NCBI GenBank assembly: GCA_947629445.1
Contig: CANRDU010000003.1
Span: forward strand, 582 to 64,581
Source: an uncultured Bacilli bacterium
GTDB taxonomy: Bacteria > Bacillota_I > Bacilli_A > RF39 > UBA660
DNA length: 64,000 bases
Reading direction: 5' to 3'
Each line of letters starts with the position of its first letter. Position 1 is the first letter of the stretch. The notes under the pieces are model-generated. The model saw only the letters and a list, made by a program, of their open reading frames with translations. It did no database searches and had not been told where the DNA came from. Both the position numbers and the translations under genes were made by a program. Below are positions 54,268 to 59,099 of this stretch, in pieces.

Positions 54268-55035
54268 ATGAAAAAAGGAAGAACTGGAAAAATGTCTTTG
54301 TTAGCAGTGGCATTTTTAGTTGCTCTTATTGGGATTTCTTTTACTTTAGAAAAAGATCAAAAAAATAAGAAAGATAATAGTAATACCAATAGCAATCAAA
54401 ATCCTGAAGAAGTAACAGATGCGATAAGATTTAAAAATGAATATGAAGAATTAAATGGTCAAAAGGCAAATGGGGATAAAACTTTCTTAGAAATTTCTAT
54501 TCCAGAAGATAATCCTATGAAATATGCTGAGTTAGAAGAAATCATGACGCTACTAAAAAGTGGCACAGGTGTCATTTATTTTGGACGTCCAAATTGTCCT
54601 TGGTGTCGGAATGCGGTTCCTGTTTTAATAGAGGCAGCGAAGGAATTAGAGATTAGTGATATTTATTATTACAATGTCAATGCTATTAAAAACGAGTGGG
54701 CTGTTAAAGATGGCGAGGTTGTGAAGACATCTCCTGAAAAAGAAGGATATTATGATTTGTTAAAGATTCTCGATAAGGAATTAGATGAATATACGGTTAC
54801 GGATGAAAATGGTAAAGCATACGAAGTAGGCGAAAAAAGAATTTATGTTCCAATGGTTGTCGTTGTAAAAGATGGAACGATTATGGCTAGTCATGTAAGT
54901 ACAGTCGATTTACTAGATGGACAAACTTCTTATGATCGATTAAATGATAGTCAACGAGAGGAACTATTAAATCTCTATGTAGAAGATTTAGCAGAATCTA
55001 TCGATCCAGGATACTGTGATGAGGCATGTGAATAA
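54268..55035 (+). CDS. Membrane-anchored thioredoxin-fold protein
   Basis: N-terminal TM, YFGRPNCPWC, YVP cis-Pro loop, C-terminal CDEAC. Confidence 0.8.
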   Translation: MKKGRTGKMSLLAVAFLVALIGISFTLEKDQKNKKDNSNTNSNQNPEEVTDAIRFKNEYEELNGQKANGDKTFLEISIPEDNPMKYAELEEIMTLLKSGTGVIYFGRPNCPWCRNAVPVLIEAAKELEISDIYYYNVNAIKNEWAVKDGEVVKTSPEKEGYYDLLKILDKELDEYTVTDENGKAYEVGEKRIYVPMVVVVKDGTIMASHVSTVDLLDGQTSYDRLNDSQREELLNLYVEDLAESIDPGYCDEACE

Positions 55036-55655
55036 TGAATTTTCAAGTTCGTTGTGAAGAAATATTAAATCAAATAAAAGAAAGAAGAGATACACCATCT
55101 CTTCTTCTTCATGCTTGTTGTGCACCGTGTAGTAGTTATGTTTTAGAATATTTAAGCAAGTATTTTAATATTACTATTCTCTATTATAATCCAAATATTT
55201 ATCCAGAATTAGAGTATCAGCGTAGATTGCAAGAATTAAAAGATTATTTAAAAAAGATATCTTTTTTGCATTCTGTTACATTAGTGGAAGATTCCTATAA
55301 TCCTGATGAATATTATCAGGTAGTAAAAGGAAAAGAGGAATTAGGAGAACGAAGCGAGAGGTGTTATTCTTGTTATCAACTTCGGATGTCTCGTGCTTGC
55401 AAGTATGCTAAGAGTCACCATATGGATTATTTTACGACTACATTATCGATTAGTCCCTACAAGAAAAGCGATTGGATTAATGAAATAGGAAAATCCCTAC
55501 AAGACCAATATGGGATTTCTTATTTGTATGCTGATTTTAAAAAGAAAAACGGTTATAAAAGATCGATTGAATTATCCAAAGAATATGGACTTTATCGTCA
55601 AGATTATTGTGGGTGTGTCTATTCTAAAATAGAGCGTGAAAAAAAAGAGCAATAA
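55035..55655 (+). CDS. queH: Epoxyqueuosine reductase QueH (DUF208)
   Basis: LLHACCAPCS, YNPNIYP, RC..CY..R, TTLSISP, YRQDYCGCVYS. Confidence 0.95.
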   Translation: MNFQVRCEEILNQIKERRDTPSLLLHACCAPCSSYVLEYLSKYFNITILYYNPNIYPELEYQRRLQELKDYLKKISFLHSVTLVEDSYNPDEYYQVVKGKEELGERSERCYSCYQLRMSRACKYAKSHHMDYFTTTLSISPYKKSDWINEIGKSLQDQYGISYLYADFKKKNGYKRSIELSKEYGLYRQDYCGCVYSKIEREKKEQ

Positions 55656-56317: not shown

Positions 56318-56842
56318 ATGAAAATATTAATCGCAACCGAAAATATTGTAAAAGTAGAAGCTTGTCAAGCTGCTTTTGAAACTTATTTTGAAAATGTGAA
56401 AGTAGAGGCTGTCCATGTACCATCAGAAGTAGGCGAAATGCCTCTCAATGATGAAATCGGAGAAGGCACTAAAAATCGTATTAAAAATTTAAAAAAATAT
56501 GCACAAGAAAATCATTTACAAGTGGATTACTATGTCGCTGTTGAATCTGGCATCAATAATTATTTTAAATCATGGATGATTACTAGTGTTGCAGGAATAG
56601 AAAATGATTCTGGTCTTGCAAGTTATTCTACCTCCCCAAGTTATCCTATCCCAGGAGAATATGTAGAGGAAATCATTCGAGATGGCTTAGGAGTTGTAAT
56701 GGACCGTATTTTTGCAGATGATGATTCAGGACACCATAAAGGAGGAATTGGCTTTTTAACACATGGTAAAATCACTAGACGCTCTTTAATCCAAGAATCT
56801 TTTATGATGGCACTCATTCGAGTAATTAATGATAATTGGTAA
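56318..56842 (+). CDS. Inosine/xanthosine triphosphatase (YjjX/DUF84)
   Basis: ATEN.VK, VPSEVGEMP, AVESG, GGIGFLTHGKITR. Confidence 0.88.
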   Translation: MKILIATENIVKVEACQAAFETYFENVKVEAVHVPSEVGEMPLNDEIGEGTKNRIKNLKKYAQENHLQVDYYVAVESGINNYFKSWMITSVAGIENDSGLASYSTSPSYPIPGEYVEEIIRDGLGVVMDRIFADDDSGHHKGGIGFLTHGKITRRSLIQESFMMALIRVINDNW

Positions 56843-56848
56843 AAAAAT

Positions 56849-56891
56849 TTAACAAAATTTTCACATGATTAACACAAATAAAGGTTATAAT
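56849..56891 (+). promoter_or_regulatory. Promoter with three 11-bp-period direct repeats (OmpR/PhoB-type boxes)
   Basis: TTAACA (56849), TTCACA (56860), AACACA (56871), then TATAAT at 56886. Confidence 0.6.
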
Positions 56892-56896
56892 GAATT

Positions 56897-57022
56897 TGTC
56901 AGCTGGAAAACATAAGTGTGAAATACTCCTCTCACTTATTACTTTTCTACTACAAACCTTATTAACAAAAATTTTGTTAATAGCATCCAGCTAACGAAAA
57001 AAGAATAGAAATATTCTTTTTT
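56897..57022 (+). ncRNA. Candidate small regulatory RNA
   Basis: Own promoter and terminator; closing stem GTCAGCTGGA/TCCAGCTAAC, two internal hairpins, anti-SD loop; no RBS-linked ORF. Confidence 0.6.
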
Positions 57023-57024
57023 TT
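56997..57024 (+). terminator. Intrinsic terminator of the candidate sRNA
   Basis: AAAAAAGAATA-GAAA-TATTCTTTTTT. Confidence 0.75.
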
Positions 57025-57070
57025 CACGAAATAACCACATTTATTGTATAATATGAGAATGAGGTGTCTT

Positions 57071-57730
57071 ATGAAAATATTAGTAGTAGATGATGAAGAA
57101 TTAATCCGTAAGGTCATTCGAGAATATCTAGAAAATTCTTCCTATGAAGTAGAAGAAGCTTGTGATGGAGAAGAGGCTATTGAATGTATTAAAAAGAAAA
57201 ACATTGATTTGATGATTCTAGATATTATGATGCCTAAAAAAGATGGATATGAAACGTTAAAAGAATTAAAAAATATTCGTTCCCTTCCTGTCATTGCGTT
57301 ATCGGCTCGAAAAGAAGAGTACGATAAATTATTAGGATTTGAACTAGGGGTAGACGATTATTTAACAAAACCTTTCTCTCCTCGTGAATTAATGGCAAGA
57401 GTAAAGGCTGTATTACGTAGAAATAAAGAAATGAATTATTATATTCGTAAGGATTTTGTCCTCGATTTTAAAGGCCATTCTTTAAAAATTGAGGAAGAAG
57501 AAGTCAAACTCACCCCAAAAGAGTATGAATTACTCGTCTATTTTATTCAAAATGAACATATCGCGCTCTCTCGGGAACAACTTCTCAATAAAGTATGGGG
57601 TTATGACTTTTACGGAGATGATAGAACTATCGATACCCATATTAAGATGTTACGAAATAACTTAGGAAAGTATCGAGATTGGATTATTACCGTACGAGGA
57701 ATGGGGTATAAATTTGAAAGCGAAGAATAG
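57071..57730 (+). CDS. OmpR-family response regulator
   Basis: ILVVDDE, LDIMMP, DDYLTKPFSPREL, LTPKEYELL, RTIDTHIK, TVRGMGY; start taken as ATG 57071. Confidence 0.96.
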   Translation: MKILVVDDEELIRKVIREYLENSSYEVEEACDGEEAIECIKKKNIDLMILDIMMPKKDGYETLKELKNIRSLPVIALSARKEEYDKLLGFELGVDDYLTKPFSPRELMARVKAVLRRNKEMNYYIRKDFVLDFKGHSLKIEEEEVKLTPKEYELLVYFIQNEHIALSREQLLNKVWGYDFYGDDRTIDTHIKMLRNNLGKYRDWIITVRGMGYKFESEE

Positions 57731-59099
57731 AAGTATCCATACCCAGATTTGGTTCTTTTTCCTCTTATTTTCCATTTTCTTATTATTCTTTATTTGGGTA
57801 ATACAGGTATTATTTTTTGACTCTTATTATGAAATTCACAAGACGAAAGAACTGAAGGATATGGCAGCGAAAGTCAAGGATGGTTATGGGAATGCTGATT
57901 TTTATGACTTTTTAGACGATCTTTCGTACGAGGAAGGCATTTGTATTGATATTGAAAAAAATGGCTATAATGCGTATCGCTCTTTTAGTTTTAATCGTGG
58001 TTGTATGATACCTGGAAAAGTATTTTATAAGAATGATTTTCCAGAGAGTAACGAGGAAGTGAAAGCCTACAAGATTGATAATCCTAAATTTAATAATGAA
58101 ATTTTAGTTTATGGTGTTAAGTTAGATACTAAGACATTTGCTTATGTAAGTGCTTCTATTGAACCATTAGATTCCGCAACTGTTTTGCTCCGTAAACAAT
58201 TTATTATTATTTCTCTTTTTGCTTTAGGTTTAGCGGTTTTAGTAAGTTATGTACTATCCAAACAAATATCGAAGCCCATTGAAGAATTAAGCAAAAAAGC
58301 AAGTAATATTTCACAAGGAGATCATCAAGTTGCTTTCTCTTCTGATACGAATATTCGGGAAATTCAACAGTTAGAAACGAGTTTAAATGAGATGCATGGA
58401 GAATTTGAAAAGACTGAAGAACTCCGTAGAGATTTAATGGCAAATGTCAGTCATGATTTAAAGACTCCATTAACGATGATTCGTGCTTATGCGGAGATGG
58501 TGCGTGACTTAACGTATAAAAATAAAAAGAAAAGAGAAGAAAATTTAAATGTTATCGTAGAAGAAACAGAACGTTTAAGCAATCTTGTGGATGATATTTT
58601 AACACTTTCTAGTTTACAATCAGAGTCCGTTGAATTAGAAGATACTACTTTTTCTATTCATGATATGATTGTCTCTACGATTCAAAAATATGAAGTATTA
58701 TTAGAAAAAGAAGGATATCATTTCCATTATGAAGGAAAAGAAGTACTTGTGTTTGCAGATAAAAAGCGAACAGAACAAGTCATTTATAATATCATTAACA
58801 ACGCAATTAATTATACTGGGGATGATAAGAATATATATATTCGACTACTAGAAAATAAAGATACTGTGCGAATTGAAATAGAAGATACTGGAAAAGGAAT
58901 CTCAGAAGAGGAAAAAAAGCATATTTGGACGAAGTATTATCACTCCTCTAAGCAGCACAAACGAAATAGGGTAGGAACGGGTTTAGGACTTGCGATTGTA
59001 AAGAATATTTTAGACAATTATCATCTTCCATATGGCATAGAATCTAAAGATAAAAACGGAACTATTTTCTATTTCGAACTAAAAAAAGGAAACAAGTAA
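57714..59099 (+). CDS. Sensor histidine kinase (HAMP-HisKA-HATPase)
   Basis: 2 TM, ANVSHDLKTPL, NAINY, DTGKGI, GTGLGLAIV. Confidence 0.96.
   Translation: MKAKNRSIHTQIWFFFLLFSIFLLFFIWVIQVLFFDSYYEIHKTKELKDMAAKVKDGYGNADFYDFLDDLSYEEGICIDIEKNGYNAYRSFSFNRGCMIPGKVFYKNDFPESNEEVKAYKIDNPKFNNEILVYGVKLDTKTFAYVSASIEPLDSATVLLRKQFIIISLFALGLAVLVSYVLSKQISKPIEELSKKASNISQGDHQVAFSSDTNIREIQQLETSLNEMHGEFEKTEELRRDLMANVSHDLKTPLTMIRAYAEMVRDLTYKNKKKREENLNVIVEETERLSNLVDDILTLSSLQSESVELEDTTFSIHDMIVSTIQKYEVLLEKEGYHFHYEGKEVLVFADKKRTEQVIYNIINNAINYTGDDKNIYIRLLENKDTVRIEIEDTGKGISEEEKKHIWTKYYHSSKQHKRNRVGTGLGLAIVKNILDNYHLPYGIESKDKNGTIFYFELKKGNK

Follow-up and report, generated by a model that had tools for sequence, protein, structure and literature searches.

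We investigated a stretch of 64,000 nucleotides (the window) from contig CANRDU010000003.1 of an uncultured Bacilli bacterium of the RF39 lineage, in which the space between a yjjX-type gene and a two-component operon appears to hold the gene of a small RNA (sRNA). In our reading, positions 56898-57024 of the forward strand encode a trans-acting sRNA of about 127 nt, which would be activated by the adjacent OmpR/PhoB-family response regulator (RR) and would direct its CU-rich segments against ribosome-binding sites (RBSs). From the sequence comparisons described below, we give this reading a probability of about 60%. As a genus-restricted sRNA candidate, that is, a conserved structured unit linked to the two-component system, the RNA is real, and it probably belongs to the circuit of the adjacent regulator. 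An earlier note, made from the letters of the window, had proposed such a module here, and its positions for the promoter, stems, hairpins, terminator and RR promoter were all correct on direct reading. The genome that contains the window (G000) has 1.32 Mb and is 79% complete.

Structure and conservation of the RNA unit

RNAfold of positions 56893-57025 gave a three-way junction plus a terminator, with a minimum free energy (MFE) of -34.0 kcal/mol. The corresponding value for 200 dinucleotide shuffles was -13.1 +/- 2.7 (z -7.86), none of the 200 folded equally well, and the structure described in the earlier note was thus reproduced. See Table 1 for the coordinates of all features. We placed the 5' end of the RNA 7 nt past the -10 hexamer and its 3' end inside the T-run of the terminator. 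The closing stem (P1) has 10 positions with a single C-A mismatch (56900/56993). The loop of the first hairpin (P2) reads AATACTCC at 56922-56929, followed by a TC that is paired, and the ACTCCTC of this hairpin is complementary to purine-rich RBSs.

Table 1. Features of the RNA unit, its promoters and the adjoining genes (window coordinates).
Feature	Position	Strand	Detail	Basis
Predicted sRNA	56898-57024	+	~127 nt	fold, covariance model, own -10 and terminator
P1, closing stem, 5' arm	56898-56907	+	pairs with 56986-56995	RNAfold, alignment
P1, closing stem, 3' arm	56986-56995	+		RNAfold, alignment
P2, hairpin 1	56912-56939	+	CU-rich loop; arms 56912-56918 and 56933-56939	RNAfold
Single-stranded linker	56940-56958	+	TACTTTTCTACTACAAACC, 19 nt, candidate seed	unpaired in MFE and centroid structures
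P3, hairpin 2	56959-56983	+	near-palindrome, 11 bp, 3-nt loop	RNAfold, alignment
Intrinsic terminator	56997-57024	+	12-bp AU-rich stem, 4-nt loop, 8 T	RNAfold
RNA promoter half-sites	56849-56876	+	TTAACA (56849), TTCACA (56860), AACACA (56871); presumed RR binding site	sequence, weight matrix
RNA promoter -10	56886-56891	+	TATAAT	sequence
RR promoter	57023-57052	+	TTCACG (57023)-N5-ACCACA (57034), TATAAT (57047)	10/12 consensus matches, matrix score 15.9
YjjX-type inosine-xanthosine triphosphatase gene (NTPase_I-T)	56318-56842	+	upstream neighbour	Pfam PF01931, 1.3e-37
OmpR/PhoB-family RR gene	57071-57730	+	219 aa	Pfam Response_reg 7.4e-33, Trans_reg_C 8.3e-27
Sensor histidine kinase gene	57714-59099	+	461 aa; HAMP, HisKA, HATPase_c	Pfam

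We regard the RNA as an independent unit because it has its own -10 hexamer and its own terminator, occurs in a single copy, holds no conserved open reading frame and matches no Rfam family. A 35-codon frame that starts within the -10 hexamer is shifted in one relative (L015) and stopped in another (L018). Rfam 15 gave no match at the gathering score across the whole 64 kb, and at E values up to 10 only three small nucleolar RNA models appeared, with E of 2.4-7.4 and far under their thresholds; the RNA is thus unannotated, as the earlier note had described it. A consensus terminator scan called no terminator at the locus, because the scan requires three G-C pairs and the AU-rich stem has one. 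The 1.32-Mb genome contains one full copy of the unit, and its other matches are terminator-like fragments of at most 30 nt. A repeat element of the REP or MITE type (repetitive extragenic palindrome; miniature inverted-repeat transposable element), which the earlier note had named as an alternative, is ruled out by this single full copy and by the one match per genome in the genus.

Relatives of the unit come in a short form, which is that of the window, and a long form. A DNA search that covered 60 relatives plus G000 found full-length matches in nine species of the same genus and a partial match in a tenth, and all 10 of these units have yjjX on one side and the RR gene on the other. Identity over the RNA core is 83-89% (best matches) versus 70-78% over the whole 1.4-kb stretch from yjjX to the RR gene. 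A covariance model of the core (R1; 106 positions, 26 pairs) matched one place each in 11 of the 20 genus genomes, at 69-116 bits, and gave no match in 150 other genera of the family (one genome each, with stricter filters). We also scanned metagenomes with a loose two-motif pattern, which proved too permissive; it returned 118 stretches, 80 of which were taken as loci. One of these 80 matched R1, on contig L127 with the same layout, and became the twelfth sequence of the alignment.

The fold is kept in these 12 sequences. In the alignment, 97.4% of the pair cells are paired versus 26-60% with the 3' partners slid by 1-3 columns. The covariation score was 0.132 versus 0.088 for shuffled alignments, and 2 of 500 shuffles reached the observed value. 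Four pairs changed on both sides, one in P1 and three in P3. P1 has 8 modelled pairs with 97.9% of their cells paired, including one pair swapped from G-C to C-G. P3 is variable in sequence with its pairing kept, and shows both-sided changes in three of its nine modelled pairs. P2 is almost invariant in 11 of the 12 sequences; in the most distant one (L019), which R1 misaligns, another stem, GCGAG/CTTGC, was seen by eye around TCTCCT. The best-conserved part is the linker, whose CTTTTCTACTA is invariant in all 11 short forms and also in L127. The near-invariance of P2 and the linker is uninformative on pairing.

Long-form units and the link to the two-component system

Orthologs of the kinase divide the genus in the same way as the RNA. 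They are 56-66% identical in the ten other species that carry the short form, and 42-46% identical in seven other species, all of which carry a long-form unit in the space before the RR gene. Only distant kinase paralogs are found in the two remaining genomes (G014 and G016), and neither gave a match with the short-form model or with a long-form BLAST query that missed one of three known positives. All 18 genus genomes with a kinase ortholog carry an RNA unit. Adjacency to yjjX is confined to the short-form species, where the synteny is kept in 10 genus genomes; a search of the seven long-form loci found no yjjX match. The RNA unit travels with the RR gene whatever the upstream neighbour.

The long form consists of TTCATA-N5-TTCACA boxes and a -10 hexamer, followed by an RNA of 150-190 nt that includes its terminator. 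Its ends are clamped by AGAAGAAAG / CTTTCTTCT in 6 of 7 species, and L057 has a longer purine/pyrimidine stem. The internal hairpins differ in sequence, and single-stranded CU-rich runs are conserved. Two long-form RNAs gave z values of -5.5 and -5.1 against shuffles. In four of the seven, a hairpin loop and its 3' arm contain AACTCCTC (AACTCTTC in L054), like hairpin 1 of the short form. Otherwise the only sequence common to both forms is a short TACAA(A/G)CC motif. RNAalifold on a MAFFT alignment of the long forms recovered the terminator alone, because the internal hairpins were misaligned. Terminator hairpins with a T-run follow in all 18 related units, short and long (-7.0 to -12.2 kcal/mol; 8-13 pairs, then at least 6 T), and their stem sequences differ among species. 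We consider the two forms likely to be homologous, the same kind of unit at the same place. A long-form BLAST search of the 150 other genera, with a query that missed 1/3 known positives in the genus, gave only short purine-rich chance matches.

These comparisons bear on the possibility that the locus is functionless, a duplicated autoregulated promoter with a spacer and a terminator that owes its conservation to close kinship. The restriction of the unit to a single genus (0/150 other genera) would fit such an origin. However, conservation is higher in the RNA core than in the coding DNA around it, compensatory changes keep the three helices and the terminator, and the fold stands at z -5 to -8 in both forms. 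We consider a functionless unit highly improbable.

Promoter repeats and proposed mode of action

Two promoters with the same kind of repeat stand before the RNA and before the RR gene. At the RNA promoter, three half-sites follow each other with an exact 11-bp period and end 9 nt before the -10 hexamer, which is TATAAT in 9 of 11 species and TAAAAT or TATGAT in the other two. A -35 at the proper spacing is lacking; TTCACA lies 20 nt upstream of the -10. At the RR promoter, the -10 stands 7 nt after ACCACA, with TG at -15/-14. Both sets of boxes, with their 11-bp period, are present as the earlier note had them.

Kinase orthologs (E <= 1e-60) were found in 43 of the 81 genera sampled, G000 included, and we compared the promoters at the 29 best loci, one per other genus. 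The RR-promoter pattern TT(T/C)A(C/T)-N6-N(A/T/C)CA, followed by TATAAT, is present in 27 of these 29 genera; the other two loci (L201 and L206) carry variants of it, as judged by eye. The consensus of the 27 sites is TTTCACA-N4-TACACA with the -10 after 8-9 nt, often with TG just upstream. From the first hexamer to the -10 there are 18-19 nt in the RR promoters versus 20 nt in the RNA promoter, and the second hexamer stands 11 nt after the first. Given these distances, the boxes are no plain -35. Both promoters would fall into the class where an activator of the OmpR/PhoB type is bound beside the -10, by analogy with the arrangements known for PhoB and CiaR (PMC3091779, PMC11870197).

We then scored sites with a weight matrix built from the 27 RR promoters of other genera, none of them from this genus. 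The RR promoter of the window scored as given in Table 1; the RNA promoter scored 15.9 and 15.7 in two registers, because it has three half-sites. A score of 15.5 is reached at just 7 positions of the 1.32-Mb genome. The matrix recognised the RR promoter of all 11 short-form species and of 6 of the 7 long-form ones (none at L057). At the RNA promoter, 8 of 11 short forms scored at least 13.8, and all 7 long forms scored at least 11.6. At L057 (G018), the stretch before the RR gene has two plain TATAAT hexamers and no box promoter. Matrix hits before ribokinase-like and ParB-like genes were set aside, as they look like chance matches after T-rich terminators.

Autoregulation of the RR gene through 11-bp-period TTCACA-type repeats is a well-founded inference, and the natural reading, because 27 of 29 other genera have this footprint in front of the RR gene. 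Control of the RNA gene by the RR is similarly well founded, since the RNA promoter shares both the repeats and their geometry. The module that the earlier note had put forward, an autoregulated two-component system plus sRNA, therefore stands as regards the shared motif, its breadth across genera and the linkage of the RNA to the system; the effect of the RR on the RNA is read from the promoter. It was also observed that the RNA promoter often has three half-sites and the RR promoters two, a possible sign of higher occupancy or cooperativity at the former.

In other genera, no RNA intervenes, and the boxes come straight after the terminator that ends the preceding gene. This suggests that a cassette of boxes, -10, RNA and terminator was inserted or duplicated before the ancestral RR promoter in this genus. 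A further proposal is that the regulatory RNA was born recently, within the one genus, by promoter duplication, that it then split into short (~105-nt core) and long (~110-150-nt core) forms, and that the anti-Shine-Dalgarno hairpin was gained and lost as a module; we put this forward tentatively, as possible rather than probable.

The position of the unit also raises the question of a cis-acting leader, in which the upstream promoter would be the true promoter, or a second one, of the RR-kinase operon, and the RNA and its terminator would be an attenuator or riboswitch-like element that sets read-through into the RR gene. Many riboswitches are likewise built from a closing stem, internal hairpins and a terminator immediately before a gene, the unit keeps company with the RR gene at every locus irrespective of what lies upstream, and the terminator stem is weak and AU-rich, with one G-C pair in the window. 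However, the RR gene has boxes and a -10 of its own behind the terminator in all 11 short-form species and in 6 of the 7 long-form ones, and this downstream promoter is ancestral, being present in other genera without the RNA. By eye, neither the P1 3' arm nor the linker has an alternative pairing with the terminator arms; the terminator differs in sequence from species to species; and no Rfam riboswitch matched. We therefore judge a cis-acting leader to be quite improbable.

In the mechanism that we propose for a trans-acting sRNA, the kinase would phosphorylate the RR, and the phosphorylated RR would activate the RNA gene along with its own operon. The RNA would have its ends clamped by the closing stem and would carry inside it the CU-rich hairpin, the invariant linker and the variable second hairpin. 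Its exposed CU-rich segments may then pair with purine-rich ribosome-binding regions of mRNAs, and the pairing would lower translation, probably without Hfq. A search for Hfq in G000, at its 79% completeness, found none.

The exposed CU-rich runs are ACTCCTC and CTTTTCTAC in the short form and TTCTCTA and ACTTCTTCT in the long form, with several in all forms. The linker offers a second possible contact, as its UCUACUAC is the complement of GUAGUAGA, which encodes the Val-Val-Asp found where receiver domains begin. In the RR gene, GTAGTAGA at codons 5-7 complements the linker; the match is exact in 7 of the 11 short-form RR genes, and 3 others have it with a single G-U. These codons are the preferred Val-Val-Asp codons of receiver domains. 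The RNA might thus damp the regulator mRNAs themselves via its linker, as the complementarity hints, but a duplex test on its own operon gave no support.

Several results weigh against an RR-activated, RBS-pairing sRNA. The reverse strand folds well too (-36.4, z -5.32), so the strand is undecidable from the fold alone; the forward strand is favoured by 12 G-U pair cells in the 12-sequence alignment, which would give A-C mismatches on the other strand, and by the promoter and the T-run. The covariation is shallow because the relatives all come from one genus, and hairpin 1 hardly varies. R1 gave nothing significant on the seven long-form loci, with 12-13 bits at the right place in two of them. 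The CU-rich hairpin is missing in L055 (G019) and L056 (G005), and replaced by a different one in L057. The RNA promoters of L012, L015 and L019 (3 of 11 short forms) fall below 10 on the matrix. Box-like sites are not enriched genome-wide, with 11 at a score of at least 14 versus 11 in a shuffled genome, and the promoter case therefore rests on position and conservation. A candidate regulon site on contig C1 was rejected, as it is an ordinary TTCACA-N17-TAAAAT promoter that is kept in all 20 genomes, the two that lack the system among them. When positions 56919-56968 were paired by RNAduplex with 1246 crude translation-start regions of the one genome, the best duplex reached -30.3 kcal/mol, a value equalled or bettered by 18 of 30 shuffled seeds; the top candidates had no common theme. 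Against its own operon, the RNA reached -20.2 kcal/mol, a value at least equalled by 31 of 40 shuffles. The earlier note's anti-Shine-Dalgarno loop thus holds as complementarity of ACTCCTC to purine-rich RBSs, and falls short in that the targets are no better than shuffles and the hairpin is missing or replaced in 3 of 7 long forms.

The same results could speak for a real RNA that is no anti-Shine-Dalgarno repressor, in which the linker binds a protein or one partner RNA (as a sponge or scaffold) and the CU-rich loop is incidental. Conservation is indeed stricter in the 19-nt linker than in the CU-rich loop, 3 of 7 long forms do without the loop hairpin, and no target enrichment was seen. All forms, however, keep several exposed CU-rich runs, as in RBS-pairing RNAs, and no candidate protein partner is linked to the locus, where the genes that flank the operon vary. 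We think such a role unlikely, and favour the RR-activated sRNA that pairs with RBSs.

Two places outside the window were noted during these searches. The contig C1 site precedes an operon of two tiny hydrophobic peptides of 28 and 47 aa (G000:C1:132600-133005, L240), each behind AAGGAGG. This operon is 72-84% identical in all 19 other species of the genus, which is unusually conserved for the genus, and the peptides presumably resemble the YjcZ-type tiny membrane proteins of Bacillus. On contig C11 (G000:C11:5033-5057, L006), 15 nt are identical to the hairpin-1 loop region (GAAATACTCCTCTCA). This match was rejected as a target: it has the same sense, is not complementary, lies inside the 3' end of a gene that codes for 325 aa, and is probably due to chance. 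The 325-aa gene sits in a cluster of small secreted and membrane proteins.

Neighbouring genes, significance and comparison with known systems

The upstream neighbour of the RNA is assigned to the YjjX type by Pfam (Table 1); its top NCBIfam match has 107 bits, under the cut-off of 175. The kinase gene overlaps the RR gene by 17 nt. None of the 25 best NCBIfam models listed for each of the two proteins is an equivalog at its own cut-off, and the best scores are 215 of 296 bits for PhoB and 210 of 725 for WalK. The kinase has relatives in uncultured Bacilli/Tenericutes and Candidatus Coprovivens, which are uncultured Bacilli with genomes of ~0.8-1.8 Mb, sampled mostly from gut and faeces. No conserved gene was found 3' of the kinase across the genus loci, and the genes flanking the operon vary. 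In the window, the kinase gene is directly followed by one for a 125-aa protein with an N-terminal prepilin methylation motif (PF07963; 59140-59517), and 4 of the 10 other short-form loci (L042, L044, L046 and L048) have a similar protein after the kinase. Further upstream, positions 54268-55035 encode a membrane-anchored thioredoxin-like protein with a CPWC motif, and positions 55035-55655 the epoxyqueuosine reductase QueH; the stop codon of the first gene and the start codon of the second share one base.

The RNA is previously undescribed, and a full-text literature search returned no paper that deals with regulatory RNAs in RF39 by its title or abstract. This kind of control element is familiar, and the lineage is unstudied for it. 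The finding leaves unchanged the understanding of how such circuits work. Three points can be tested at this locus: the putative binding motif of a two-component system that occurs in roughly half of the genera sampled (43/81), the autoregulation of the system, and a predicted genus-specific RNA arm of its circuit. It is also a compact example for the origin of sRNA genes from promoter duplication; if that origin is true, the birth and remodelling of an sRNA could here be dated, which is rarely possible.

The earlier note had likened the RNA to the csRNAs of Streptococcus, the cia-dependent small RNAs under the OmpR-type regulator of CiaRH, and to RoxS/RsaE. The likeness holds for the design and fails for membership in either family. 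According to the account of the csRNA promoters in PMC3091779, a CiaR repeat TTTAAG-N5-TTTAAG lies 10 nt before the -10, with its G positions essential; the csRNAs are intergenic, have a terminator within 250 nt, and combine stem-loops with an unpaired stretch complementary to the Shine-Dalgarno sequence. As far as that account goes, the RNA described here is alike in its direct hexamer repeat with a 5-nt spacer, about 10 nt (here 9) before the -10, in its intergenic position, and in its small size, stem-loops and unpaired stretch with complementarity to RBSs. It likewise has its terminator within 250 nt (-10 at 56886, terminator at 56997-57024). However, the repeat here is TTAACA/TTCACA/AACACA, with no TTTAAG. 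The csRNAs occur in 2-6 dispersed copies, whereas this RNA has one copy per genome that adjoins the regulator gene; they have two stem-loops, whereas this RNA is a three-way junction clamped by a closing stem; and the host is an uncultured small-genome Bacilli lineage rather than Streptococcus. Rfam gave no csRNA similarity at the gathering score or at E values up to 10, and no Cia model is among the 25 best NCBIfam models for the RR or for the kinase. Membership of the csRNAs is therefore rejected, since the repeat sequence, Rfam and the CiaRH regulator all fail and only the design and geometry are alike.

RoxS/RsaE is reportedly a ResD/SrrA-dependent sRNA of Bacillus and Staphylococcus with pyrimidine-rich unpaired motifs that act against RBSs. 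These motifs are runs of C. In contrast, the RNA described here is CU-rich (CTCCTC and CTTTTCTAC) and has no run of four C in 56898-57024, and NCBIfam gave no ResD/SrrA equivalog for its RR. With no Rfam match to RsaE at any threshold used and no C run, membership of this family is also rejected.

The promoters have a further parallel in the PHO boxes of Bacillus subtilis PhoP, described in PMC11870197, after Eder et al. 1999, as TT(A/T/C)ACA-like hexamers with an 11-bp periodicity that replace the -35. On that description, TTAACA and TTCACA here, and TACACA in relatives, fit the hexamer and the period, but PHO boxes have four hexamers and the promoters here two to three. Against the NCBIfam models, PhoB (TIGR02154) reached 215 bits with a cut-off of 296, PhoR 187 with 334, and PnpS 194 with 400. 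PstB stayed under its cut-off in G000 (best 145.7 versus 343.2) and in 5 further species of the genus with 93-97% completeness, and a search for PhoU in G000, at its 79% completeness, gave none. Membership of the Pho regulon is rejected, as PhoB, PhoR and PnpS fall under their cut-offs and neither PstB nor PhoU was found in these searches.

In its placement, the RNA resembles FasX (fasBCAX), Qrr1 (next to luxO) and NrsZ (after ntrBC), whose genes are said to lie beside those of the two-component proteins that control them. There is no sequence relation to these RNAs, and the arrangement here is one in which the RNA gene stands upstream of the regulator gene, in tandem, under what appears to be a copy of the autoregulated promoter.

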